Below the pieces are notes generated by a model, which made no database searches, was not told the DNA's origin, and worked only from the letters and a program-made list of their open reading frames with translations. A stretch of DNA of 30,598 bases from a virus (lineage: Duplodnaviria > Heunggongvirae > Uroviricota > Caudoviricetes), in the IMG/VR virus record IMGVR_UViG_638341084_000008. One strand, written 5' to 3'. This document shows positions 512 through 30,598 of this stretch, piece by piece. A program made the position numbers and the translations under genes. How positions within the stretch are numbered: position 1 is the first letter of the stretch; each line of letters starts with the position of its first letter.

Positions 512-585
512 TTGAGGGGGTAATTGAATCAGTTTAATGTGTGGGGAGTCGATTTATTCTCCCCATTTTATTTAATTAATTTACT
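512..585 (+). promoter_or_regulatory. Candidate late promoter / Q-utilisation region with hairpin, immediately downstream of Q
   Basis: TTGAGG (512-517), a 17-nt spacer and TAATGT (535-540) form a sigma-70-like -35/-10 pair. A hairpin GGGGAG..CTCCCC (543-564) is followed by a T-rich tract. The position after Q is where lambdoid PR'/qut normally lies. This is read by eye only. Confidence 0.3.
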
Positions 586-1031
586 TAAGGTTTTAATTCA
601 TCAAGACGTTGTTGGATAGTGTTTTTGCTTGCGTTGTCTGTTATAGCCATTTGTTGTACTTGCCCCATTGCCATTTGAGTTTCCATCCACATATCGGCCC
701 ACACTTTTGTATCGTTATTAACTTGAGCGATAGTAAATCTGACTTTTGATACCGGGGTTGTTGAATAGGCATTGCCGATTAACATTTGTCCAAAAACAGC
801 AGACCCGCCTTCCAGTTCTTTACCACATATAACACTGCTGTTATCAGCGTTGTAAATTATCAACCCTCTACTATTGCAGTAATTCACAAGGGCATCTTTG
901 ACTTTATCTTTTGTCGTATTTTGATAAACCCCCTCAGGTTTTCCTGATTGAGTTTTTTTTATCAATGGTACGGAAGAAGTACAACCTGAAATGATAGTTG
1001 CGCTAAGTAATAGTACAGTCATTTTATTCAT
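585..1031 (-). CDS. Predicted lipoprotein of unknown function, antisense to late transcription (moron candidate)
   Basis: 148-aa ORF with an N-terminal signal peptide and lipobox (MNKMTVLLLSATIISGC, Cys as the +1 residue). It sits on the opposite strand between Q and the late genes, the same position as the antisense porin morons in DLP12 and PA-2. Confidence 0.55.
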   Translation of the reverse strand: MNKMTVLLLSATIISGCTSSVPLIKKTQSGKPEGVYQNTTKDKVKDALVNYCNSRGLIIYNADNSSVICGKELEGGSAVFGQMLIGNAYSTTPVSKVRFTIAQVNNDTKVWADMWMETQMAMGQVQQMAITDNASKNTIQQRLDELKP

Positions 1032-3683: not shown

Positions 3684-4217
3684 ATGAACGCAAAAATCAG
3701 ATACGGCCTGTCGGCTGCCGTTCTGGCGCTGATTGCCGCTGGTGCGCCTGCGCCTGACATTCTCGACCAGTTTCTGGATGAAAAGGAAGGTAACCACACC
3801 ACGGCATACCGTGATGGCGCGGGTATCTGGACCATCTGCCGCGGTGCCATCCTGGTGGATGGCAAACCTGTCGTTCCGGGCATGAAGTTGTCGAAGGAAA
3901 AATGCGACCGGGTTAACGCCATTGAGCGTGATAAGGCGCTGGCATGGGTGGAGAAAAACATCAAAGTGCCATTGAGCGAACCACAGAAAGCGGGTATAGC
4001 GTCATTTTGTCCCTATAACATTGGCCCCGGTAAGTGTTTCCCGTCGACGTTTTATAAGCGGCTGAATGCCGGTGATCGTAAGAGTGCATGCGAGGCGATT
4101 CGCTGGTGGATAAAAGATGGTGGGCGCGATTGCCGCATACGTTCAAATAACTGCTATGGACAGGTTATTCGTCGTGACCAGGAAAGCGCATTAGCCTGCT
4201 GGGGGATAGATCAGTGA
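3684..4217 (+). CDS. R: Endolysin (lysozyme), probably a SAR-type endolysin
   Basis: The N-terminus has a weakly hydrophobic Gly/Ala-rich segment ([17 protein letters not shown]) followed by a lysozyme-like region ([20 protein letters not shown]). Both the position after the holin and the pairing with a pinholin fit the phage-21 lysis arrangement. Confidence 0.85.
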
Positions 4218-4681
4218 GCAGAGTCGCCGCGATTATTTATGCTCTGGTTATCTGCATCATCGTCTGCCTGTCGTGGGCGGTCAATCATTACCGTGATAAC
4301 GCCATCGCCTACAAAGAACAGCGTGATAAAAAAGTCAGTGAGCTGAAGCAGGCGACCGCCACCATTACTGACATGCAGCAACGCCAGCGTGCTGCTGATG
4401 TACTCGATGCTAAATACACGAAGGAGTTGGCTGATGCGAAAGCTGAAAATGATGCTCTTCGGCGCAAGCTTGATAATGGTGGTCGGGTGCTCGTCAAAGG
4501 AAAATGCTCTGTGCCATCCTCAGCCGAAACCTCCAGCGCCTCCGGCATGGGCAATGATGCCACCGTCGAACTCTCTCCAGTTGCTGGACGAAACGTTCTC
4601 GGTATCCGGGACGGAATCATCAGAGACCAGACAGCACTGAGAACGCTTCAGGAATATATCAGGACGCAATGCCTTCGATGA
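4214..4681 (+). CDS. Rz: Spanin inner-membrane subunit Rz (i-spanin)
   Basis: N-terminal transmembrane segment followed by a coiled-coil-like charged region. The GTG start overlaps the endolysin stop (GTGA), and the gene has an embedded +1 frame lipoprotein ORF. Confidence 0.8.
4434..4640 (+). CDS. Rz1: Spanin outer-membrane lipoprotein subunit Rz1 (o-spanin), embedded in Rz
   Basis: The embedded ORF encodes [21 protein letters not shown]..., with lipobox VVGC and a proline-rich mature part. AAGGAG lies at 4421-4426 before the ATG at 4434. Confidence 0.7.
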
Positions 4682-5199
4682 TAGCGATAATTTTACTCAT
4701 CATCCTTCACATCTGGCTCTGTAGACAGGGTGGTGATCACTTCTGGAGTGAATCCAGATTAAACATCTCATTGCTGATGCTTGAAGTTGAGCATCTGGCG
4801 CGCGGTAAGGGGCTGCGTTGAAATAAGAGCCAGTCATTACAAATACCAGGATTTAGCCTCGTATTCGCGGGGCTTTTTATTGCCATTACAAAAGCCACTC
4901 CCTACAGAGTGGCTTTGATAATGGCTTATACCCTACACGGGATAACTTAACTGATATCCCTTTTAACGGATAAAGGTATTCAAGCCTGACACATCATGCG
5001 CTGTATCGTCGCCGTATTCCCGTATTAACAGAGACCGTAGCCCGACGGGGAACTCCTTCTGCGAGAGTGTGCGGGGGTGGAAGAAACAGGATACTCACAC
5101 AGATTCTTGTGGGCACGATGCTATTCCTTTCTGGATTATCCCGATGCCATTCATGCAAGGCGCTGTATCAGACGTTCGTCATGGCTGTCAGGCTGACGG

Positions 5200-5410
5200 G
5201 TCCTCCCGGTGGGGTGGCCTGCCACGGGGCGGGAGCGTCGCGGAAAAAGGCTAGTTTTTGCATTTTTATTGGCCACCATCATCTTTGCATCTTATTGATT
5301 ATTAATGGTTATTTGTTTTTTGCATGTCGAATTGAGTGTTTTTTGTTCGACATCGAACGCGTTTTCTTAAAGTTGTTCGCACGATGCATGTTTAAAGCTC
5401 TCCGGAGGAA
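5200..5410. other. Candidate cos region (cosN-like GC-rich core plus small-terminase binding repeats)
   Basis: It lies between Rz and the small terminase gene, where cos sits in lambdoid phages. ACGGGGCGGGAGCGTCGCGG (about 5224-5243) resembles the lambda cohesive-end region. Three TTTGCAT repeats (about 5257, 5284, 5318) and a palindrome ATGTCGAA..TTCGACAT (5333-5363) follow. Confidence 0.4.
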
Positions 5411-5412
5411 AT

Positions 5413-5904
5413 ATGGATCATGAGTTGAAAAACCTGGTGCTGAATATTAATCAACTGGCGGCTTTATCTGGTCTGCACCGCCAGACTGTCGTGGCAAGAC
5501 TGAAAAACATTCGTCCCGCTGGTGGACATGACAAACTCAAGCTATACCGGTTGACCGATATTCTGACTGAATTTATGGGGTTACCACCGCCGGTTGCTGA
5601 GGGCGAAATGGATCCACATGAACGCAAAGCCTGGTATCAGTCTGAACGTGAGCGTCTTAAGTTCGAACAGGAAACGGCACAACTCATTCCGGCCAGTGAT
5701 GTCAGACGGGAGTTTGCCATCTGGGCAAAAGCGGTCGTGCAGGTGCTGGAGACATTACCGGATATTCTGGAACGTGACTGCGGCCTGCAGCCTGCCGCTG
5801 TGAGCCGTGTTCAGTCCATTATTGATGATCTGCGCGATCAGATAGCCCTGCGGGTGACCGAAGCAGGTGCGGATGATGAGGAGGAATTACAGCAGGAGGA
5901 GTAA
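5413..5904 (+). CDS. Terminase small subunit (Nu1-like)
   Basis: 163-aa protein with an N-terminal HTH-like segment (LAALSGLHRQTVVARL) and an acidic C-terminus. Its stop overlaps the large-subunit start (TAATG). Confidence 0.8.
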   Translation: MDHELKNLVLNINQLAALSGLHRQTVVARLKNIRPAGGHDKLKLYRLTDILTEFMGLPPPVAEGEMDPHERKAWYQSERERLKFEQETAQLIPASDVRREFAIWAKAVVQVLETLPDILERDCGLQPAAVSRVQSIIDDLRDQIALRVTEAGADDEEELQQEE

Positions 5905-8006
5905 TGCTGAATCAGGAAACCGCAACGGCAGCACGAACCGATTCAGGTTATATCCTTCGCGCACCGAGACGAATGCGGGTTGCTGATGCCGTTGCTCAGT
6001 ATATGCGGGTGCCCATGGGGGCAGGGAACTCAGTCCCGTGGGATCCGCTGGTGGCACCGTATGTTATTGAGCCGATGAACTGCCTGGCCTCGCGTGAATA
6101 CGACGCAGTGATATTTGTTGGCCCGGCACGAACCGGCAAGACTATCGGCCTGATTGACGGCTGGGTGATTTACAACGTGATTTGCGACCCTGCGGATATG
6201 CTGATCATTCAGATGACGGAGGAAAAAGCCCGCGAACACTCCAAAAAACGACTCGCCAGAACGTTTCGCGTCAGCCCGGAAGTGGTCAGTCGCCTGAGTC
6301 CGAACAAAAATGACAACAACGTTTATGACAGAACATTCCTTGCTGGCAACTACCTGAAAATCGGCTGGCCGTCAGTCAATATCATGTCCTCATCAGATTA
6401 TAAATGCGTCGCGCTGACGGATTATGACCGTTTTCCGGAAGATATTGATGGCGAGGGGGATGCTTTCTCTCTTGCCTCAAAACGTACCACAACATTTATG
6501 TCCAGTGGTATGACGCTGGTGGAGAGTTCCCCCGGCAGGGATGTGAAGGATGTGAAATGGCGACGGACTTCACCGCATGAGGCTCCACCAACCACTGGGA
6601 TACTGTCGCTCTATAACCGTGGCGATCGCCGTCGCTGGTACTGGCCCTGTCCACACTGTGGTGAGTATTTTCAGCCCTGCGGCGATGTGGTTGCTGGTTT
6701 CCGTGATATTGCCGATCCCGTGCTGGCAAGTGAGGCGGCTTATATTCAGTGTCCTTCCTGTTCAGGACGGATTATGCCTGAACAAAAACGTGAGCTGAAC
6801 GGACGTGGGGTCTGGCTGCGGGATGGTGAATCCATCAATGCGGATGGCAGTCGTTATGGTGATCCCCGACGCTCACGTATTGCGTCATTCTGGATGGAGG
6901 GTCCGGCAGCTGCTTACCAGACACTCTCGCAACTCGTTTACAAACTGCTTACTGCAGAACAGGAATACGAGACAACCGGAAGTGAAGAAACACTCAAGAC
7001 GGTTATCAATACCGACTGGGGATTACCTTATCTTCCCCGCGCCAGCATGGAGCAACGAAAAAGTGAACTGCTTGAGCAGCGGGCAGAGCCAGTTCCTTCC
7101 CGCAGTGTGCCGGATGGCGTTAATTTCCTTGTGGCGACAGTGGATGTGCAGGCGGGACGTCATCGCCGTTTTGTGGTTCAGGTAACGGGCTATGGCAGCC
7201 GTGGCGAACGCTGGATTATTGATCGTTACAACATCACGCAGTCATTGCGCGGTGACAGCGACGGGGAGAGCCAGCGAATTGATCCGGCCAGTTATCCGGA
7301 AGACTGGGATGTCCTGCTGACGGATGTTTTTCATAAAAGCTGGCCGCTGGCCTCCGATCCTTCTCAACAAATGCGACTGATGGCAATGGCGGTGGACTCC
7401 GGCGGTGAAGACGGGGTCACTGATAATGCCTATAAATTCTGGCGTCGTTGCCGTCGTGATGGCCTTGGTAAACGTATTTACCTGTTTAAGGGCGACAGCA
7501 TCCGGCGCGCAAAACTGATCACCCGTACATTCCCTGATAACACCGGACGAACGGGCCGACGGGCGCAGGCCGCAGGTGATGTACCGCTCTGGCTTCTTCA
7601 GACGGATGCCCTGAAAGACCGGGTGAATAACGCGTTATGGCGTGACTCGCCAGGTCCCGGCTATGTGCATTTCCCTGACTGGCTGGGGAGCTGGTTTTAC
7701 GACGAACTGACGTATGAAGAGCGGAGCAGTGACGGGAAATGGAGTAAGCCGGGTCGCGGTGCCAACGAAGCTTTTGACCTGATGGTGTATGCCGAGGCTC
7801 TGGTCATTCTGCATGGATACGAAAAGATCCGCTGGCCGGATGCACCGGAGTGGGCGAGCCGGGAAACCTGGCTGGAGTGTGTCCCGGACAGTACCGAACC
7901 GTCACCCTCACCGGAACCGGTATCCACGCCTGTTAAAAAACAAAAACGGAAGAAAACAGTAACTGACGATGTTAACCCCTGGCTGACTTCCGGAGGATGG
8001 TTATGA
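5904..8006 (+). CDS. Terminase large subunit (gpA-like)
   Basis: 700-aa protein with a Walker A-like motif (VGPARTGKT) in the N-terminal ATPase region, placed as in lambda between the small terminase and W/portal. Confidence 0.9.
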   Translation: MLNQETATAARTDSGYILRAPRRMRVADAVAQYMRVPMGAGNSVPWDPLVAPYVIEPMNCLASREYDAVIFVGPARTGKTIGLIDGWVIYNVICDPADMLIIQMTEEKAREHSKKRLARTFRVSPEVVSRLSPNKNDNNVYDRTFLAGNYLKIGWPSVNIMSSSDYKCVALTDYDRFPEDIDGEGDAFSLASKRTTTFMSSGMTLVESSPGRDVKDVKWRRTSPHEAPPTTGILSLYNRGDRRRWYWPCPHCGEYFQPCGDVVAGFRDIADPVLASEAAYIQCPSCSGRIMPEQKRELNGRGVWLRDGESINADGSRYGDPRRSRIASFWMEGPAAAYQTLSQLVYKLLTAEQEYETTGSEETLKTVINTDWGLPYLPRASMEQRKSELLEQRAEPVPSRSVPDGVNFLVATVDVQAGRHRRFVVQVTGYGSRGERWIIDRYNITQSLRGDSDGESQRIDPASYPEDWDVLLTDVFHKSWPLASDPSQQMRLMAMAVDSGGEDGVTDNAYKFWRRCRRDGLGKRIYLFKGDSIRRAKLITRTFPDNTGRTGRRAQAAGDVPLWLLQTDALKDRVNNALWRDSPGPGYVHFPDWLGSWFYDELTYEERSSDGKWSKPGRGANEAFDLMVYAEALVILHGYEKIRWPDAPEWASRETWLECVPDSTEPSPSPEPVSTPVKKQKRKKTVTDDVNPWLTSGGWL

Positions 8007-8215: not shown

Positions 8216-9723
8216 TGGCAATTCTTGATGATGTGATTGGCGTTTTTTCACCAGGATGGAAAGCGGCAAGGCTGCGTTCCCGTGCGGTGATCCAGGCTTA
8301 TGAGGCCGTAAAAACGACGCGGACACACAAAGCCCGGCGGGAGAACCGAACTGCCGACCAGTTAAGCCAGTACGGGGCCGTGTCGTTACGTGAGCAGGCC
8401 CGTTACCTTGATAACAACCACGATCTGGTTATTGGTGTATTTGACAAGCTGGAAGAACGGGTGGTGGGGAAAAACGGGATTATTGTCGAGCCACATCCGG
8501 TATTACGCAATGGGGCCATTGCCCGTGATCTGGCAGCGGAGATACGCACCCGATGGAGTGAATGGTCTGTCAGTCCGGAAGTCACCGGGCAGTTTACCCG
8601 TCCGATGCTGGAACGTCTGATGCTGCGTACCTGGCTGCGCGATGGTGAGGTGTTTGCCCAGATGGTTTCCGGGCGCATAAACAGCCTGACGCCTTCTGCC
8701 GGTGTTCATTTCTGGCTGGAGGCGCTCGAGCCGGACTTTATTCCCATGACCAGTGATGAGAGCAACAGGCTGAATCAGGGCGTGTTTGTTGATGACTGGG
8801 GGCGTCCCGAAAAATATCTGGTGTATAAAAGCCGTCCCGTATCCGGGCGGCAGATGGAAACCAAAGAAGTGGATGCAGAGCGAATGCTGCATCTTAAATT
8901 TGTTCGCCGTCTGCACCAGATGCGCGGGACGTCTTTGTTGTCCGGTGTGCTGATCCGCCTCAGTGCCCTGAAAGAGTATGAAGATTCTGAGCTGACTGCA
9001 GCAAGGATCGCCGCTGCTCTGGGGATGTACATCCGGAAAGGCGACGGGCAGAGCTATGAACCGGATGGTAATGGCAGCAAGGAGAATGAACGCGAGCTTA
9101 CCATTCAGCCAGGCATTATTTACGACGATCTGAAACCCGGCGAAGAAATCGGAATGGTGAAGTCGGATCGTCCCAATCCTAACCTGGAAACTTTTCGTAA
9201 TGGTCAGTTGCGTGCCGTGGCGGCGGGCAGTCGTCTGAGTTTTTCCAGTACGGCACGCAACTATAACGGCACTTACAGCGCCCAGCGTCAGGAACTGGTT
9301 GAGTCTACTGATGGCTACCTGATCCTGCAGGACTGGTTTATTGGTGCCGTCACCCGTCCGATGTATCGTGCCTGGCTGAAACAGGCTGTGGCATCCGGTG
9401 TTATCAGGCTACCCCGCGATCTTGACCGTTCTTCACTGTATACCGCGGTGTATTTCGGACCAGTGATGCCGTGGATTGACCCTGTTAAGGAGGCTGAGGC
9501 CTGGAAAATCCAGATTCGTGGTGGAGCGGCGACAGAATCAGACTGGGTACGTGCTGGTGGTCGTAATCCGGATGATGTCAAACGTCGGCGCAAGGCCGAA
9601 ATTGATGAAAACCGCAAGCTGGATCTGGTATTTGATACCGATCCGGCCAGTGATAAAGGAGGCAGCAGTGCCGCAACGAAACGACAGGAGCCGCAGCACA
9701 CCGACGACCAGTCCGAAGAATAA
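8215..9723 (+). CDS. Portal protein (gpB-like)
   Basis: About 500 aa, placed after W. Start ATG at 8215 overlaps the W stop (TGATG). The track's longer ORF from 8143 is an upstream extension. Confidence 0.9.
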   Translation: MAILDDVIGVFSPGWKAARLRSRAVIQAYEAVKTTRTHKARRENRTADQLSQYGAVSLREQARYLDNNHDLVIGVFDKLEERVVGKNGIIVEPHPVLRNGAIARDLAAEIRTRWSEWSVSPEVTGQFTRPMLERLMLRTWLRDGEVFAQMVSGRINSLTPSAGVHFWLEALEPDFIPMTSDESNRLNQGVFVDDWGRPEKYLVYKSRPVSGRQMETKEVDAERMLHLKFVRRLHQMRGTSLLSGVLIRLSALKEYEDSELTAARIAAALGMYIRKGDGQSYEPDGNGSKENERELTIQPGIIYDDLKPGEEIGMVKSDRPNPNLETFRNGQLRAVAAGSRLSFSSTARNYNGTYSAQRQELVESTDGYLILQDWFIGAVTRPMYRAWLKQAVASGVIRLPRDLDRSSLYTAVYFGPVMPWIDPVKEAEAWKIQIRGGAATESDWVRAGGRNPDDVKRRRKAEIDENRKLDLVFDTDPASDKGGSSAATKRQEPQHTDDQSEE

Positions 9724-9736
9724 TTCCTGGTTCAGG

Positions 9737-11695
9737 ATGCAGGCTGGTCACCAGAGTGACGCGGATATTTATATTTATGACGAGATTGGTTTCTGGGGTG
9801 TTACAGCGAAGCAGTTTATCAGTGATCTGAATGCACTGGGCGATATCACCCACATTAATCTTCATATTAATTCACCGGGTGGCGATGTCTTTGAAGGCAT
9901 CGCCATTTTTAATGCACTGAAAACACATGGTGCGTCCATTACCGTTTATGTCGACGGTGTGGCGGCGTCAATGGCGTCGGTCATTGCGATGGTGGGAAAC
10001 CCGGTCATTATGCCGGAAAACACTTTCATGATGATTCATAAACCATTTGGCTTTACGGGCGGTGATGCGGAGGACATGCGCACCTATGCCGACCTGCTCG
10101 ATAAGGTTGAGGCGGTTCTGTTACCCGCTTATGCACAGAAAACCGGGAAAACCACCGATGAAATTGCTGCCATGCTGGCGGATGAGACCTGGATGTCCGG
10201 TGCCGAATGTCTGGCACATGGATTTGCTGATCAGGTAACGCCAGCCGTTAAGGCAATGGCATGTATTCAGTCAAAACGTACAGAGGAATTTAAAAAGATG
10301 CCGGAATCCATTCGAAACATGATTACTCCGCCACGCAACAGTGCTCCACGCGTACAGGATAATGAACCTGTAGCCTCCCGGACGCCAGTGCAGGCAGCAG
10401 CACCTGTGGTGGATGAAAACAGTATCCGTGCGCAGGTACTGGCAGAGCAAAAAGCGCGTGTAAACGGTATTAATGATTTGTTTGCCATGTTTGGCGGGCG
10501 TTATCAGACGCTGCAGGCTCAGTGTCTTGCCGATCCTGAATGTTCGCTGGAGCAAGCCCGCGAAAAGCTGTTGAACGAGATGGGGCGCGAGTCCACGCCA
10601 TCCAATAAAAATACCCCGGCTCATATTTATGCCGGTAACGGTAATTTTGTGGGGGACGGGATCCGCCAGGCGCTGATGGCGCGTGCCGGATTTGAAAAAA
10701 CCGAACGTGATAATGTCTACAACGGGATGACCCTGCGTGAATATGCTCGTATGTCACTGACTGAACGGGGGATTGGGGTTTCCAGTTATAACCCGATGCA
10801 GATGGTCGGTGCGGCGTTCACACACAGTACGTCTGACTTCGGTAATATTCTGCTGGATGTTGCGAACAAAGCCATTCTGCAGGGCTGGGAAGATGCCCCT
10901 GAAAGCTATGAACAGTGGACGCGGAAAGGTCAGTTGTCTGATTTTAAAATTGCCCATCGTGTGGGTATGGGGGGCTTCAGTGCTCTGCGTCAGGTGCGTG
11001 AAGGGGCGGAATATAAATACGTCACCACCGGAGATAAACAGGCCACTATTGCACTGGCGACCTATGGCGAGCTGTTCAGTATCACCCGTCAGGCCATTAT
11101 CAATGATGATCTGAATATGCTGACCGATGTCCCGATGAAACTGGGCCGTGCGGCGAAATCCACTATTGCCGATCTGGTTTATGCCATTCTGACGTCTAAC
11201 CCGAAAATCTCCACAGATAATGTAAGTCTGTTCGATAAAGCGAAACATGCAAACGTACTGGAGAGCGCTGCAATGGACGTGGCATCGCTGGATAAAGCCC
11301 GCCAGTTGATGCGTGTTCAGAAAGAGGGGGAGCGTCATCTGAATATTCGTCCTGCGTTCGTACTGGTACCAACGGCGATGGAGTCTGTTGCTAACCAGGT
11401 CATTCGCTCCTCAAGTGTCAAGGGGGCTGACATTAACGCCGGTATTATTAACCCGGTGAAAGATTTTGCGACCGTTATTGCAGAGCCTCGTCTTGATGAT
11501 AACAGCCAGACCACCTTCTACCTGGCTGCGTCCAAAGGCTCCGATACGATTGAAGTGGCTTATCTCAACGGTGTGGATACGCCATATATTGATCAGATGG
11601 AGGGCTTCAGTGTGGATGGCGTGACAACGAAAGTGCGTATTGACGCCGGTGTCGCGCCAGTTGATCACCGCGGTCTGGTGAAATGTACGGCGTAA
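9737..11695 (+). CDS. Fused prohead protease (ClpP-like) and major capsid protein
   Basis: The N-terminal part carries a ClpP-type motif (INSPGGDVFEGIAIFNALK). The ORF runs uninterrupted for 652 aa, and the C-terminal part is the size of a major capsid protein. The ATG at 9737 is 14 nt after the portal stop. Confidence 0.75.
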   Translation: MQAGHQSDADIYIYDEIGFWGVTAKQFISDLNALGDITHINLHINSPGGDVFEGIAIFNALKTHGASITVYVDGVAASMASVIAMVGNPVIMPENTFMMIHKPFGFTGGDAEDMRTYADLLDKVEAVLLPAYAQKTGKTTDEIAAMLADETWMSGAECLAHGFADQVTPAVKAMACIQSKRTEEFKKMPESIRNMITPPRNSAPRVQDNEPVASRTPVQAAAPVVDENSIRAQVLAEQKARVNGINDLFAMFGGRYQTLQAQCLADPECSLEQAREKLLNEMGRESTPSNKNTPAHIYAGNGNFVGDGIRQALMARAGFEKTERDNVYNGMTLREYARMSLTERGIGVSSYNPMQMVGAAFTHSTSDFGNILLDVANKAILQGWEDAPESYEQWTRKGQLSDFKIAHRVGMGGFSALRQVREGAEYKYVTTGDKQATIALATYGELFSITRQAIINDDLNMLTDVPMKLGRAAKSTIADLVYAILTSNPKISTDNVSLFDKAKHANVLESAAMDVASLDKARQLMRVQKEGERHLNIRPAFVLVPTAMESVANQVIRSSSVKGADINAGIINPVKDFATVIAEPRLDDNSQTTFYLAASKGSDTIEVAYLNGVDTPYIDQMEGFSVDGVTTKVRIDAGVAPVDHRGLVKCTA

Positions 11696-24519: not shown

Positions 24520-24531
24520 TGTGGGGTGAAT

Positions 24532-27465
24532 ATGGCAGTAAAGATTTCAGGTGTACTGAAAGACGGTGCAGGTAAACCGGTACAGAACTGCACAATCCAG
24601 CTGAAAGCAAAACGTAACAGCACCACGGTGGTGGTGAACACGCTGGCCTCAGAAAATCCGGATGAAGCCGGGCGTTACAGTATGGACGTTGAGTACGGTC
24701 AGTACAGCGTTATTCTGTTGGTGGAAGGATTCCCGCCGTCACATGCCGGGACCATCACCGTGTATGAAGATTCCCGACCCGGTACGCTGAATGATTTTCT
24801 CGGTGCCATGACGGAGGATGATGCCCGTCCGGAGGCACTGCGCCGTTTTGAGCTGATGGTGGAAGAGGTGGCGCGTAACGCGTCCGCGGTGGCACAGAAC
24901 ACGGCAGCCGCGAAGAAGTCAGCCAGCGATGCCGGCACATCAGCCCGTGAGGCGGCAACCCATGCGACTGATGCTGCAGGCTCAGCACGTGCAGCCAGCA
25001 CATCAGCCGGGCAGGCCGCGACGTCGGCTCAGTCAGCGTCTTCCAGCGCAGGAACGGCATCAACAAAGGCTACTGAAGCATCAAAAAGTGCTGCCGCTGC
25101 AGAGTCCTCAAAAAGTGCTGCCGCTGCAGAGTCCTCAAAAAGCGCGGCAGCTACCAGTGCCAGTGCCGCGAAAACGTCAGAAACGAATGCGGCAGCGTCA
25201 CAAAAATCTGCAGCCACTTCTGCATCCGCCGCGACCACAAAGGCGTCAGAAGCTGCCACCTCGGCACGGGATGCGGCGGCCTCAAAAGAGGCAGCGAAAT
25301 CATCAGAAACGAACGCATCATCAAGCGCCAGTAGTGCCGCTTCCTCGGCAACGGCGGCAGGAAATTCCGCGAAGGCGGCAAAGACGTCCGAGACGAACGC
25401 CAGGTCTTCTGAAACGGCAGCGGGACAGAGTGCCTCAGCTGCGGCAGGCTCAAAAACAGCGGCTGCGTCGTCTGCCAGTGCCGCGTCAACAAGTGCCGGG
25501 CAGGCCTCAGCCAGTGCCACCGCCGCCGGAAAATCGGCAGAAAGTGCCGCATCGTCTGCTTCAACAGCCACAACGAAGGCTGGCGAAGCCACTGAACAGG
25601 CCAGCGCAGCAGCGAGGTCTGCTTCCGCTGCGAAGACATCCGAAACGAACGCGAAAGCGTCGGAAACCCGTGCAGAATCCTCAAAAACGGCAGCCGCATC
25701 GTCCGCCAGTTCGGCAGCGTCATCGGCATCATCTGCGTCAGCTTCAAAAGATGAGGCGACCAGACAGGCGTCAGCAGCGAAGGGCAGCGCCACGACAGCA
25801 TCCGCGAAGGCGACAGAGGCAGCTGGCAGTGCGACGGCGGCAGCACAGAGCAAAAGTACGGCGGAATCCGCGGCAACGCGCGCCGAGACAGCGGCAAAAC
25901 GGGCAGAGGATATTGCATCCGCCGTGGCGCTTGAGGATGCAAGTACGACGAAAAAGGGGATAGTACAGCTCAGCAGTGCGACCAACAGCACTTCCGAGTC
26001 ACTGGCGGCAACGCCAAAAGCGGTTAAGGCGGTAATGGGTGAAACGAACAAGAAAGCGCCCTTAAATAGTCCTGCACTGACCGGAACGCCAACAACACCA
26101 ACTGCGCGACAGGGAACGAATAATACCCAAATCGCAAGCACGGCTTATGTTATGGCTGCGATCGCTGCCCTCGTGGACTCGTCGCCTGACGCACTGAATA
26201 CGCTGAACGAGCTGGCTGCGGCGTTGGGCAACGACCCGAATTTTGCGACCACCATGACTAACGCGCTTGCGGGTAAGCAACCGAAAGATGCCACCCTGAC
26301 GGCGCTGGCCGGGCTTGCTACTGCGGCAGACAGGTTTCCGTATTTTACGGGGAATGATGTTGCCAGTCTGGCAACCCTGACAAAAGTTGGGCGGGATATT
26401 CTTGCGAAATCGACCGTTGCCGCCGTTATCGAATACCTCGGTTTACAGGAAACGGTAAACAAGACTGGTAACGTCGTTCAGCGTTCCGGCGATAAAATGA
26501 CCGGAGAACTGAAAATTGGCACGGTGAATGCGCTGCGAATTTTCAATGATGCCTTCGGTCTTATTTTCCGTCGTTCAGAAGATTTTCTTCATTTCATTCC
26601 GACGGCTGAAGGACAAGGCGAAAACGGTGATATCGGCCCATTAAGGCCATTCGCTATAAATCTGAGAACAGGTGCTATATCTGTCAGCCACGGGGCCAAA
26701 ATTGATGGTGGGCTGGCGCTTGGTACAGATAACGCACTGGGCGGTAATTCCATTACTCTCGGAGATAACGACACTGGTATTAAACAGGGCGGCGACGGTG
26801 TCCTTTTATTCTATTCAAATGGACAACTGGCATTTGGGCTTCAACCCGCATCTGCTGATTTTTATAAGCGGGTTGCATATATTCATCAGGGAATAATTCC
26901 TGATGGAAGTGGCGCATTTGCAGACCAGTTGAATAATGCCACCGCGCCTTTTGTTCAGACGCAGTTTGCCTGGAATCCCACTCCTGGTGGTCATTACGTG
27001 CCGATAGTTAAGGGCTTGTCCATTCGCAATGGACAGGGCTATCCCGGCGCGGTCAGCTTTGGGTATTTACTGACAGAACAGTATGGATTTCCGGTTCCAT
27101 GTATTCATATGCGTGGCGATGGCGGTAATAATGCTTTATGGCAGTTTAACCCGAACGATAAATCCTTTATTTCACCGGGTGCTCTTATTGCGGGTGGCGT
27201 CCGTTATAACACCGATGGAAATATATTTGGTGGGTGCTGGGGTTCAAACTTAAATGATTACCTGAATAGTTCTTTTATCAGAAATGTGCGTCTGGGAGGC
27301 AGACGTTCTGACACATTATATCGCGGAGGACTTTGCGAACCAGGTAATGGTCATGTGACAACAGGATTGCAAATTATTGGTGAGGTTGATGGAGATGACT
27401 GGATGGTGTCACGACCACTACAAAAATACATTTCTGGTAACTGGTATAACGTTGAACAGGCATAG
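24532..27465 (+). CDS. stf: Side tail fiber protein (Stf-like); C-terminal part lies inside the invertible segment
   Basis: The N-terminus (MAVKISGVLKDGAGKPVQNCTIQLKAKRNSTTVVVNTLASENPDEAGRYSMDVEYGQYSVIL) matches lambda Stf, followed by a long Ala/Ser/Thr-rich repeat region. The track start at 24526 is a GTG, so the ATG at 24532 is preferred. Confidence 0.85.
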   Translation: MAVKISGVLKDGAGKPVQNCTIQLKAKRNSTTVVVNTLASENPDEAGRYSMDVEYGQYSVILLVEGFPPSHAGTITVYEDSRPGTLNDFLGAMTEDDARPEALRRFELMVEEVARNASAVAQNTAAAKKSASDAGTSAREAATHATDAAGSARAASTSAGQAATSAQSASSSAGTASTKATEASKSAAAAESSKSAAAAESSKSAAATSASAAKTSETNAAASQKSAATSASAATTKASEAATSARDAAASKEAAKSSETNASSSASSAASSATAAGNSAKAAKTSETNARSSETAAGQSASAAAGSKTAAASSASAASTSAGQASASATAAGKSAESAASSASTATTKAGEATEQASAAARSASAAKTSETNAKASETRAESSKTAAASSASSAASSASSASASKDEATRQASAAKGSATTASAKATEAAGSATAAAQSKSTAESAATRAETAAKRAEDIASAVALEDASTTKKGIVQLSSATNSTSESLAATPKAVKAVMGETNKKAPLNSPALTGTPTTPTARQGTNNTQIASTAYVMAAIAALVDSSPDALNTLNELAAALGNDPNFATTMTNALAGKQPKDATLTALAGLATAADRFPYFTGNDVASLATLTKVGRDILAKSTVAAVIEYLGLQETVNKTGNVVQRSGDKMTGELKIGTVNALRIFNDAFGLIFRRSEDFLHFIPTAEGQGENGDIGPLRPFAINLRTGAISVSHGAKIDGGLALGTDNALGGNSITLGDNDTGIKQGGDGVLLFYSNGQLAFGLQPASADFYKRVAYIHQGIIPDGSGAFADQLNNATAPFVQTQFAWNPTPGGHYVPIVKGLSIRNGQGYPGAVSFGYLLTEQYGFPVPCIHMRGDGGNNALWQFNPNDKSFISPGALIAGGVRYNTDGNIFGGCWGSNLNDYLNSSFIRNVRLGGRRSDTLYRGGLCEPGNGHVTTGLQIIGEVDGDDWMVSRPLQKYISGNWYNVEQA
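25081..25134 (+). repeat. Perfect 27-bp tandem repeat (2 copies) within the stf low-complexity region
   Basis: TCAAAAAGTGCTGCCGCTGCAGAGTCC occurs at 25081-25107 and 25108-25134, encoding SKSAAAAES twice. A diverged partial third copy follows. Confidence 0.7.
26426..26451. other. Left crossover site of the invertible tail-fiber segment (gix/pix-like)
   Basis: TTATCGAATACCTCGGTTTACAGGAA. Seventeen of its bases (ACCTCGGTTTACAGGAA) match the reverse complement of the Mu gix site as I recall it. It lies in frame in stf at ...VIEYLGLQET... Confidence 0.7.
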
Positions 27466-27480
27466 CCATCAGGAGAATAT

Positions 27481-28008
27481 ATGCAACATCTGAAAAATAT
27501 TACCGCCGGAAACCCCAAAACCATTGAGCAGTATCAGCTTACGAAAAAAGCTGGCGTTATCTGGCTATATACAGAAGACGGTAAAAACTGGTATGACGAA
27601 TTAAAAAACTTTCAGGATGATACTTTAAAAATAGCTTATGACCAGAAGGGGATTATTCGTTGTATTGAGAAAGACGTATCAACACTTAACCCTGACGGGT
27701 TAAGTGTTGTTGAGTTACCGAATATAACAGCCAACCGTCGCGCCGATATCTCGGGAAACTGGAAGTTTCTGGATGGTAAAGTAGTAAAGCGGGAATATAC
27801 AAAACAGGAACTGCAACAGCAGGCAGAGTTACAAAAAGCCGCTTTGCTTTCCGAAGCGGAGTCTGTGATTCAACCGCTGGAACGTGCTGTCAGACTGAAT
27901 ATGGCAACTGATGAGGAACGCACACGACTGGAATCATGGGAACGCTACAGCGTTATGGTCAGCCGTGTGGATACTGCAAAGCCTGAATGGCCACAGAAAC
28001 CAGAATAA
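27481..28008 (+). CDS. tfa: Tail fiber assembly protein (Tfa, Mu U-like)
   Basis: 175-aa ORF directly after stf, with AGGAGA upstream. It is a paralogue of the inverted gene at 28039..28572 ([23 protein letters not shown]... versus [23 protein letters not shown]...). Confidence 0.8.
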
Positions 28009-28019
28009 CAACAAATTAA

Positions 28020-28033
28020 GGCCCGTACGGGCC
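28020..28033. terminator. Bidirectional hairpin terminator between the convergent tfa genes
   Basis: GGCCCG-TA-CGGGCC palindrome, with a T-rich tract downstream on the + strand and an A-rich tract upstream (T-rich on the minus strand). Confidence 0.5.
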
Positions 28034-28038
28034 TTTTC

Positions 28039-28572
28039 TTATTCTGGTGGTTCCGGGAATGTTACAGGAAGAACCGAGGTATCAGTTGTCTCAACCTGTT
28101 GCACGTATCGCATCCAGTTCATCAGTTGCTGTCTGTCTGAATCAGTGATAATCCCCAAAGTAAGCTGTGTTTGCCAGAACTGCGTTTTTTCTCTGGCCTG
28201 CTGTAATAATATTTTTTTCTGGTTTTCCGTCTGTAGGCGCAACTCTTCTTCGGTATATACACGTTTAATGACTGCGCCATCTTTAAACATCCATTTACCT
28301 GAGTCGTCAGCACGCCGGTTGGCGGTAATATCAGGAATCTCAACGACGCTATAACCTTCAGGGTTAAGTGTGGAGGCATCTTTGGTTATGGCAACAATAA
28401 TATTATTTTCATCGTAAACAATCTTTATGGTGTCTGGCTGAAAGTTTTTCACTTCCTCATACCAGTTTTTTCCGTCCTCAGAGTAAAGCCAGATAACTCC
28501 GTGTTTCTTTGTTAACTCATACTGTTCCAGTGTTTTAGCATTACCCGCTTTTATGTTCTTTAAGTGCATCAT
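28039..28572 (-). CDS. Tail fiber assembly protein of the alternative, inverted cassette (Tfa', Mu U'-like)
   Basis: 177-aa minus-strand ORF paralogous to Tfa. It lies immediately downstream, on the minus strand, of the inverted fiber C-terminal cassette. Confidence 0.8.
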
Positions 28573-29040
28573 ATTAAACGCTCGCTACATTATACCAGGT
28601 GCCATTTATATACTTTTGAACGGGTCTGTAATAAACGCCCGCTATATTATCGGCAGAGTTAGACCCTGTATCCTGAACATTAATACCAGACAATACATGA
28701 CCTGAAGGGCACCGGAAATTCCATGTTTGCCAGTTGTTCACTCCATAATATTGCTGTGAACCAAGTCGAACATCTTTCACATAACGGGAATCAAAGTTAC
28801 CGTAATCCGAGGGGTTAACACGCCCTGTAATATTTATGGTTTTATTACTTTGAATGCTTCCGGAGACAAAGCGCATAACATGGACGTTATTAGCATAAAC
28901 ATCCAGATTACCATCGCCATTTTGTTTAAAGCCCGTGTCATTATCACCCAATACAATCGAATTACCGCCAAGAGCACTGGATGTTCCGATACCCAGTGCA
29001 CCATTCAGTTGACCACCAGATAACGGCAGTGCACCAACAT

Positions 29041-29459
29041 CTCCTGCTGAAGGTTTTCTGGTGGTGGTGTAAAATTCGGACCAGTCGGCTTCAAAACCAT
29101 AACCATCACGGGCTGAACGATAAAAAATACCGCCATTTTTATAATTAATCCGAAACTGAGCTGCAGGACAACTTCCTTCTCCCATATAAAAATGAATAAT
29201 TAACGTTGATGCACCACTAATAGTTGCGTTATAGGCTCCGCTACTCCAGTTCCATCCAACTGCTTTATCATTCGCAACGGTGCTTCCTGTTTTCCCTAAG
29301 GCAAACGCACCAACATCTCCTGCTGAAGGTTTTCTGGTGGTGGTGTAAAATTCGGACCAGTCGGCTTCAAAACCATAACCATCACGGGCTGAACGATAAA
29401 AAATACCGCCATTTTTATAATTAATCCGAAACTGAGCTGCAGGACAACTTCCTTCTCCC
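29041..29459. repeat. Tandem duplication with a 276-bp unit (copy 1 29041-29316; copy 2 is 29317-29459 and resumes after IS1 at 30237-30369)
   Basis: The exact repeats are visible directly: 29041-29183 equals 29317-29459, and 29184-29316 equals 30237-30369. The unit is a multiple of 3, so the duplication is in frame (92 aa). Confidence 0.75.
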
Positions 29460-29474
29460 GGTAATGACTCCAAC

Positions 29475-29978
29475 TTATTGATAGTGTTTTATGTTCAGAT
29501 AATGCCCGATGACTTTGTCATGCAGCTCCACCGATTTTGAGAACGACAGCGACTTCCGTCCCAGCCGTGCCAGGTGCTGCCTCAGATTCAGGTTATGCCG
29601 CTCAATTCGCTGCGTATATCGCTTGCTGATTACGTGCAGCTTTCCCTTCAGGCGGGATTCATACAGCGGCCAGCCATCCGTCATCCATATCACCACGTCA
29701 AAGGGTGACAGCAGGCTCATAAGACGCCCCAGCGTCGCCATAGTGCGTTCACCGAATACGTGCGCAACAACCGTCTTCCGGAGCCTGTCATACGCGTAAA
29801 ACAGCCAGCGCTGGCGCGATTTAGCCCCGACGTATCCCCACTGTTCGTCCATTTCCGCGCAGACGATGACGTCACTGCCCGGCTGTATGCGCGAGGTTAC
29901 CGACTGCGGCCTGAGTTTTTTAAATGGCGGAAAATCGTGTTGAGGCCAACGCCCATAATGCGGGCGGTTGCCCGGCAT
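29475..29978 (-). CDS. insB: IS1 transposase InsB
   Basis: The 167-aa translation ([16 protein letters not shown]...[13 protein letters not shown]) matches IS1 InsB as I recall it. Confidence 0.9.
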
Positions 29979-30172
29979 CCAACGCCATTCATGGCCATAT
30001 CAATGATTTTCTGGTGCGTACCGGGTTGAGAAGCGGTGTAAGTGAACTGCAGTTGCCATGTTTTACGGCAGTGAGAGCAGAGATAGCGCTGATGTCCGGC
30101 GGTGCTTTTGCCGTTACGCACCACCCCGTCAGTAGCTGAACAGGAGGGACAGCTGATAGAAACAGAAGCCAC
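29897..30172 (-). CDS. insA: IS1 InsA (transposition regulator; N-terminal part of the InsAB' frameshift product)
   Basis: The 91-aa translation ([42 protein letters not shown]...) matches IS1 InsA. Confidence 0.9.
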
Positions 30173-30559
30173 TGGAGCACCTCAAAAACACCATCATACA
30201 CTAAATCAGTAAGTTGGCAGCATCACCCCTTCTCCCATATAAAAATGAATAATTAACGTTGATGCACCACTAATAGTTGCGTTATAGGCTCCGCTACTCC
30301 AGTTCCATCCAACTGCTTTATCATTCGCAACGGTGCTTCCTGTTTTCCCTAAGGCAAACGCACCAACATGACTTGCTTTTAATGTGATATCGGAGGAACC
30401 ATCAAAACCCACATTGCTTATTTTCCTGGCAGTTTTTAATTTTGCAGCTGTAGAAGCATTGCCGGATAGTTCACCAGAAAGGCCACCGCTGAATGTTTGT
30501 CGATTAGTCCAGGTATTCGCTGTACTGAGTAACGGTATTTTCTCCCCGCTTGTGCCGAG

Positions 30560-30585
30560 TTCTCGTAAACCGAGGTTTTAGATAA
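30560..30585. other. Right crossover site of the invertible tail-fiber segment (gix/pix-like)
   Basis: TTCTCGTAAACCGAGGTTTTAGATAA. Its reverse complement matches the left site at 26426-26451 in 22 of 26 positions, including the 12-bp core ACCTCGGTTTAC. It lies 13 bp from the window end. Confidence 0.7.
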
Positions 30586-30598
30586 TGGCGGTTTCTGG

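Follow-up and report, generated by a model that had tools for sequence, protein, structure and literature searches.

A probable Mu-G-type invertible tail-fibre segment in a lambdoid prophage of enteropathogenic Escherichia coli B171, with its silent cassette interrupted by IS1

Introduction

Since Mu, P1, and e14, the inversion of tail-fibre segments has been a textbook subject. The locus described here raises the question of whether a pair of inverted 26-bp sequences at a side tail fibre gene (stf) marks another switch of this type and, if so, which enzyme would operate it. The DNA is virus record IMGVR_UViG_638341084_000008, a stretch of 30,598 nucleotides (nt) referred to throughout as the window. 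A look-up of a 299-aa fragment encoded on its minus strand identified it as the whole of draft contig AAJX02000046.1 (30598 nt, assembly GCA_000167895.4), and AAJX is the draft genome of enteropathogenic E. coli (EPEC) strain B171 (PMC4464170).

We are confident that the locus is a Mu-G-type invertible segment of the Din family (Gin/Cin/Pin/Hin), grafted onto stf of a lambdoid prophage in EPEC B171, with one of its two gene sets (set B) broken by the insertion sequence IS1 and its catalyst outside the contig. A preliminary description, made from the letters of the window, had proposed a Gin/Pin-type invertible tail-fibre segment in a lambda-like tail module. That proposal is borne out by sites that resemble gix of Mu, by assembly genes (tfa) that resemble Mu U and U', and by the occurrence of inversion in near-identical copies.

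Crossover sites

The two sites that bound the segment are as follows.

26426 to 26451, plus strand: left crossover site, TTATCGAATACCTCGGTTTACAGGAA, composed of TTATCGAATACC-TC-GGTTTACAGGAA, with its central dinucleotide at 26438-26439
30560 to 30585, minus strand: right crossover site, read as the reverse complement TTATCTAAAACCTCGGTTTACGAGAA, composed of TTATCTAAAACC-TC-GGTTTACGAGAA, with its central dinucleotide at 30572-30573

The preliminary description had placed 26-bp inverted sites at these positions, and the same coordinates were recovered here, with a similarity far beyond chance. The left and right sites are identical at 22 of 26 positions, and a repeat search stretches the pair to 32 nt at 84% identity (26420-26451 and 30560-30591), the two arms being 4108 nt apart. 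By chance, 22 or more matches in 26 have a probability of 2.9e-10 per position pair, with 0.13 inverted pairs expected anywhere in the window; the best partner of the site reached 15-18 matched positions in 20 shuffles, compared with 22 in the real sequence. Because the probability per position pair is so low and the shuffles reach just 15-18, the pair is regarded as real rather than a chance similarity.

Both sites have the organization found in the Din family, being inverted, imperfect 26-bp dyads with 12-bp half-sites around a 2-bp center, which is the same TC in each. Both gix sites of phage Mu (NC_000929) are TTATCCAAAACCTCGGTTTACAGGAA, which is matched at 24 of 26 positions by the left site and 23 of 26 by the right, and the annotated boundary of the Mu G segment falls on the same central dinucleotide as in the window. 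Furthermore, both 26-mers are identical to the published 5' and 3' sites of prophage Phi4 in E. coli EC958 (PMC4134206, Table 3). A search inside the segment for further crossover-like sites, as in a p15B Min-like arrangement, returned just core matches at 3 mismatches; since these occur at chance frequency, only two sites are recognized. The p15B Min system is one with multiple inversions.

Gene sets and reading frames

The layout is also that of the Din family, with the constant 5' part of the fibre gene outside the segment and two opposed sets inside it, both of which are in frame after exchange. The features are listed below.

24526 to 27465, plus strand: stf, a continuous open reading frame (ORF) of 979 amino acids (aa) that reads through the left site
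24526 to 26439, plus strand: constant part of stf, 638 codons from the GTG at 24526, outside the invertible segment
26440 to 27465, plus strand: variable fibre C-terminus of set A, in frame with the constant part
27481 to 28008, plus strand: tfa of set A, a 175-aa tail fibre assembly protein (PF02413, E=9e-35)
28018 to 28035, no strand assigned: GC-rich hairpin between the convergent tfa genes, from a consensus scan alone
28039 to 28572, minus strand: tfa' of set B, a 177-aa tail fibre assembly protein (PF02413, E=6e-32)
28574 to 29459, minus strand: distal fragment of the set B fibre C-terminus (PF12604, gp37_C), separated from its 5' part by IS1
30228 to 30571, minus strand: proximal fragment of the set B fibre C-terminus, lacking its own start codon; silent as the segment is now oriented

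Set A is the expressed version, since it is the one currently fused to the constant part of stf; PF03406 is recorded in its product as called. On the other strand, the set B frame from 30573-30572 encodes GLRELGTSGEK..., and is closed upstream by a TAA at 30578-30580, in the outer half-site of the right site, so that set B stays silent as the segment now lies. At each site, the TC at the center supplies the last two bases of a CTC codon, and exchange at the centers thus preserves the reading frame. The preliminary statement that both fibre C-termini read in frame through the crossover site agrees with the CTC codon at both centers and with an intact 941-aa fusion in strain JJ1886. Its account of the contents of the segment stands for the stf C-terminus and tfa on the plus strand and for the second tfa on the minus strand; the minus-strand fibre cassette is not a single ORF, being split by IS1.

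The hairpin between the convergent tfa genes looks like a terminator for both strands, and a scan of the window for promoters and terminators gave no excess over shuffles.

Inversion in near-identical copies

An inverted form of the locus was made in silico by exchange at the central dinucleotides. When IS1, its target duplication, and one unit of a 276-bp repeat are set aside, the window runs colinear to EC958 over 3646 nt, of which 11 are mismatched, and its orientation is that of EC958, 4/1-1, and 4/4. The inverted form built in this way aligns with JJ1886, JJ1887, strain 4/0, and numerous further genomes of sequence type 131 (ST131) over 3646 nt in one piece, with 100% coverage at 99.7% identity. 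JJ1886 has TTATCGAATACC-TC-GGTTTACGAGAA as its left site and TTATCTAAAACC-TC-GGTTTACAGGAA as its right one, an exact swap of the inner half-sites, and the exchange therefore took place inside the 12-bp common core ACCTCGGTTTAC. The alternative fusion in this strain is an intact, annotated gene of 941 aa followed by a 177-aa tfa.

Junction queries against complete E. coli genomes at 99% identity or above returned about 233 records in the orientation of the window and about 137 in the inverted one, a split found among genomes of ST131 type; half-matches score 98.4% or less among the matches listed, from which we infer that these records represent full-length junctions. In B171 itself, the predicted junctions of the inverted state are GAATACCTCGGTTTACGAGAACTCGG and CGTTTCCTGTAAACCGAGGTTTTAGATAATGG. 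As a separate observation, one series of Swedish faecal isolates of ST131 type contains both arrangements, 4/0 being inverted and 4/1-1 and 4/4 not.

Forde et al. (2014) described the Phi4 sites of EC958 as ccgccgTTATCGAATACCTC GGTTTACAGGAA and ccgccaTTATCTAAAACCTC GGTTTACGAGAA, with an invertible segment of 3106 bp, and obtained PacBio contigs in both orientations from a single culture (PMC4134206). They found the Phi4 invertase gene to be severely truncated and proposed that inversion is carried out in trans by the invertase of prophage Phi1 (PMC4134206).

These data also bear on a different explanation, in which the inverted repeat is a mere by-product of homologous cassettes and inversions arise by general homologous rather than site-specific recombination. 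Crossover sites elsewhere do sit within longer imperfect inverted repeats, of 508 bp in Phi1 (PMC4134206) and 85 nt in the Yersinia phage vB_YpM_3. The repeat here, however, is just 32 nt at 84% identity and coincides with the Mu gix sequence, and the JJ1886 junctions map within the 12-bp identical core around the central dinucleotide. We find general recombination scarcely credible as the source of the inversions, and retain site-specific exchange of the Din type.

IS1 insertion and duplication in set B

The B171 copy differs from its relatives within the silent cassette, where an insertion sequence is found.

29460 to 30227, minus strand: IS1, 768 bp, with insA at 29897-30172 and insB at 29475-29978

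The element shows the size, the terminal inverted repeats, and the insA and insB' frames of IS1, and it is flanked by 9 bp of duplicated target, CCTTCTCCC, at 29451-29459 and 30228-30236; Pfam matches are PF03811 and PF12759 (InsA) and PF03400 (IS1 transposase). None of the 5,426 complete E. coli genomes searched has an IS1 at this position, the highest coverage being 84%.

A second change is a perfect tandem duplication of 276 bp (92 codons) in the set B tip, lying in window positions 29031-29459 and 30237-30359, with IS1 inside the first copy. The distal fragment contains one unit in full (29031-29306) and 153 nt from the 3' end of its neighbor (29307-29459), and a 10-bp microhomology, ATGTTGGTGC, is present at the ends of the units. 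The unit corresponds to a discrete module whose product shares 85% identity with Mu S' residues 154-246. A search of other genomes for the duplication junction gave two-piece matches only and no single contiguous match, and the duplication is either strain-specific or an error of the draft assembly.

IS1, the target duplication, and one repeat unit add 1053 bp, and because of these extra bases the span from site to site, both 26-bp sites included, is 4160 bp in B171 compared with 3107 bp without them and in relatives. The measured span agrees with the figure of about 4.2 kb in the preliminary description.

The insertion also alters what inversion would deliver. IS1 truncates set B after 115 codons of the variable part, and the inverted product in silico consists of 638 constant codons, 115 codons of set B, and 6 IS1-encoded codons before a stop, giving 759 aa. 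By comparison, the present product has 979 aa, a restored set B would give 952 aa, and a version with the duplication and without IS1 would give 1044 aa. The earlier expectation that inversion swaps the receptor-binding end of the fibre is thus sound for the family and for ST131, and fails for this particular copy, in which the IS1 truncation would leave 759 aa and the distal tip would be lost.

Invertase, right flank and enhancer

Invertases of the Din family are small serine recombinases of about 185-205 aa, with a catalytic Ser9, whose genes adjoin one of the two sites. The preliminary description had expected such a gene just beyond the right end of the window, and the contig stops 13 nt past the right site.

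30586 to 30598, plus strand: contig end, the last 13 nt, TGGCGGTTTCTGG, which start the spacer toward an invertase gene or remnant
beyond 30598: expected continuation of the flank past the contig end, TGGCGGTTTCTGG followed by CCTGCATGGCATGATTTG

The spacer from the site to the start codon of the invertase is 54 nt in EC958, Mu, and vB_YpM_3. By analogy, the start codon in B171 would be expected about 42 nt beyond the end of the window, with the gene starting MLIGYVRVSTNDQ. Contig breaks such as this one, 13 nt outside the right site, are an outcome of assembly when further prophages carry copies of the site and invertase region or when both orientations are present.

Related segments in Mu, in the Muvirus vB_YpM_3, and in P2-like prophages are adjoined by intact invertases. 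In EC958, JJ1886, and EC12, only a remnant of 60-64 codons is found 54 nt past the right site; its approximately 190 nt are nearly identical to Mu gin and are followed by stop codons and a deletion that joins a tfa fragment. Among complete E. coli genomes, 531 have this remnant and its deletion junction, 381 of them at 99% identity or above; enterotoxigenic E. coli (ETEC) H10407 is one of the 531, at 96%. So wide a distribution points to an old and widely inherited inactivation in which the 5' end of the gene was kept. The 13 nt that end the B171 contig agree exactly with the right flank in EC958 and EC12 and differ from those of Mu and vB_YpM_3, which makes a remnant a serious possibility for B171, and the neighboring gene there is probably the same truncated one as in these relatives.

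To judge by the titles of two papers in the references of PMC3798978, Kahmann (1985) and Johnson (1985), the Gin enhancer is located within the invertase gene. Since the remnant keeps approximately 190 nt of gin, its retained 5' end may still supply a Fis-bound enhancer.

Possible sources of the enzyme itself are found in other prophages. The ST131 strain 4/1-1 carries a P2-like prophage (piece 4285-7712) with an invertible fibre segment of its own, with sites TTATCGAATACCTCGGTTTACGAGAA and TTATTTAAAACCTCGGTTTACGAGAA that are near-identical to those of the window, and an intact recombinase of 199 aa that is 80% identical to Gin; this prophage also shares part of an alternative tip of set B type. 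A similar P2-like element with an intact invertase and matching sites is present in EPEC E110019. Along with experiments showing that PinQ acts in trans on e14 (PMC12529663), these intact P2-like invertases with matching sites make inversion by the enzyme of another prophage plausible. We infer that the catalyst lies outside the contig, and inversion in B171 would need a Din-family invertase supplied in trans from another prophage, since the neighboring gene is probably a truncated remnant.

Is the B171 copy still active?

Several observations weigh against the reading adopted here. The contig stops 13 nt beyond the right site, so any invertase and enhancer of this strain would lie outside it. 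The same contig is unbroken through the left site and the whole of the segment, with no sign in the assembly of mixed orientations. With IS1 and the duplication in it, set B is evidently free of selection in B171, which fits a disused switch, and the duplication comes from a draft assembly in which an error is possible.

A rival proposal is that the locus is a frozen relic, with its anatomy kept and no inversion in B171, where the adjacent invertase would be a remnant, no compatible enzyme would be present elsewhere, and the locus would be decaying. In keeping with this are the IS1 and duplication in the silent cassette, the continuity of the contig through the left site, and a right flank of the EC958/EC12 type, where the neighboring gene is a pseudogene. 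However, identical sites with the same dead neighbor still invert in ST131, P2-like prophages with intact invertases and matching sites occur both in ST131 (4/1-1) and in EPEC (E110019), and trans action of Din-family invertases is known (PMC4134206, PMC12529663). We therefore consider a frozen relic a possibility to be taken seriously, if somewhat doubtful.

The reading that we favor, a Mu-G-type segment with its catalyst elsewhere, would work as follows. A dimer of the serine invertase would bind each 26-bp site and, together with Fis and the enhancer, would cleave the DNA at the central TC/GA dinucleotide. After a rotation of half the complex by 180 degrees, the ends would be religated, and the DNA between 26440 and 30571 would be flipped. 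The 638 constant codons of stf would be read either into set A (C-terminus and tfa, the present state) or into set B (C-terminus' and tfa'). In B171, the flipped state would yield a fibre stump of 759 aa that lacks the whole distal tip and, because set B is broken by IS1, the switch would at best turn the side fibres on and off. The side fibres of lambda are dispensable, and lambda PaPa lacks a functional stf.

A role in favor of the host has also been weighed, in which the flipped chimeric or truncated Stf hinders the adsorption of other phages. There is a precedent in E. coli K-12, where PinQ from another prophage is reported to invert the P segment of e14 in trans and the resulting StfE2 to interfere with adsorption by other phages (PMC12529663), and the inverted state here would likewise encode a chimeric stump of 759 aa. 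The contig, however, contains a complete late region, so that the fibre is most simply a part of the virion, and the IS1-truncated product lacks the whole C-terminal tip; we regard a benefit to the host as very unlikely. A broader form of the idea, that the IS1-crippled segment of B171 is still flipped by the invertase of another prophage, either as an on/off switch for the side fibres or to make a truncated chimeric Stf that blocks adsorption of other phages for the benefit of the host, as with PinQ and StfE2 in e14, is given only a small chance.

Prophage context

The contig spans the complete late region of a lambdoid prophage. Its gene order begins with the Q antiterminator, a DNA methylase, lysozyme, and Rz, continues with a gpA-type terminase, a lambda-family portal, and a fusion of ClpP and capsid, and ends in the tail module with Z, a lambda-type tube protein, the tape measure, M, L, K, and J, followed by Lom and stf. 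Outside the invertible segment, the best identity of the B171 tail module to any complete genome is 94-96%. A search for a complete sister genome of the whole module found none above about 96% identity, and the right flank is not inferable by that route.

The stf product has the features of a lambda-type side tail fibre (Stf/Tfa). These are the Pfam domain PF08400 (prophage tail fibre N-terminal domain; residues 3-136, E=2e-71), a position 3' of gpJ and lom, and a PF02413 assembly protein next to it; a lambda-like start, MAVKISG, is located at 24532. No database record matched the exact Stf protein, in either its 977-aa or its 979-aa version. In the constant part, window positions 24900-25950 consist of a long Ala/Ser/Thr/Lys-rich stretch built from degenerate repeats of 27-63 nt.

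Other features of the window are unrelated to the switch. The slot between the Q antiterminator and the lysis genes is often a position for cargo genes in lambdoid phages, and here (1656-2708) it holds a gene for a 350-aa N6/N4 DNA methylase (PF01555). At 9476-11695, a single ORF of 739 aa encodes both a prohead protease domain of ClpP type and a major capsid domain. Two ORFs, of 148 aa (585-1031, minus strand) and 118 aa (5067-5423, plus strand), gave no Pfam match, and no tRNA genes were found in the window.

Significance

The segment is already known: it is a copy of the switch described in ST131 Phi4, ordinary and here partly decayed, and a 2014 report describes the same segment, its sites identical, as actively switching in E. 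coli ST131. What marks the B171 copy as degenerate is its IS1 insertion together with its 276-bp duplication. For annotation, the alternative fibre fragments should not be recorded as separate tail fibre genes, and a contig end beside a crossover site is a typical assembly break. Of wider interest, the widespread truncated remnant of the invertase, together with both orientations in ST131, provides a clean natural example of inversion driven in trans.

Comparison with known systems

Among the switches of E. coli prophages, the P region of e14 with its invertase PinE (and similarly Rac with PinR and Qin with PinQ) resembles the window in exchanging a fibre C-terminus together with tfa, and PinE is 77% identical to the invertase remnant of EC958. 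Where they differ, e14 has a segment of 1.8 kb and sites of clearly greater divergence. Sites of e14 type were considered for the window and rejected, as the gix-like pattern has no match in e14 at up to 3 mismatches, and the sites are assigned to the Mu/Phi4 type.

The Mu G segment with Gin shares the layout of S-U and U'-S' between inverted 26-bp sites, to which the window sites show the identities given above. At the protein level, tfa is 78% identical to U, tfa' is 69% identical to U', and the 92-aa S' module is 85% identical. In contrast, the constant part in the window is a lambda-type Stf (PF08400) on a siphovirus tail, whereas Mu S belongs to a myovirus; variable part A resembles Mu S in patches only; and gin adjoins the segment in Mu, whereas the window ends before that position.

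The Yersinia phage vB_YpM_3 (a Muvirus) is closer at the nucleotide level, with 97% identity between window positions 26419-28628 and its piece 4001-6213. The match begins 7 nt before the left site and takes in variable part A, both assembly genes (tfa and tfa'), and the end of set B. Its intact invertase of 205 aa starts 54 nt past its right site. Unlike the window, it is a Mu-like myovirus with an unrelated constant fibre part, and the rest of its set B is different. Since the identity starts 7 nt before the site and the constant parts are unrelated, the crossover site appears as a mosaic joint between phage families.

The nearest known system is Phi4 of EC958 (PMC4134206). It differs in that B171 alone has IS1 and the 276-bp duplication in the alternative cassette, in that lom is intact in B171 and split by ISEc12 in EC958, and in that the remaining tail module of B171 is at most about 96% identical to any complete genome. 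The two share both 26-bp sites without a difference, the gene order lom-stf-tfa-tfa'-stf', and the same 13 nt of right flank, and the sequences are 99.7% identical over 3646 nt once IS1 and the duplication are set aside.

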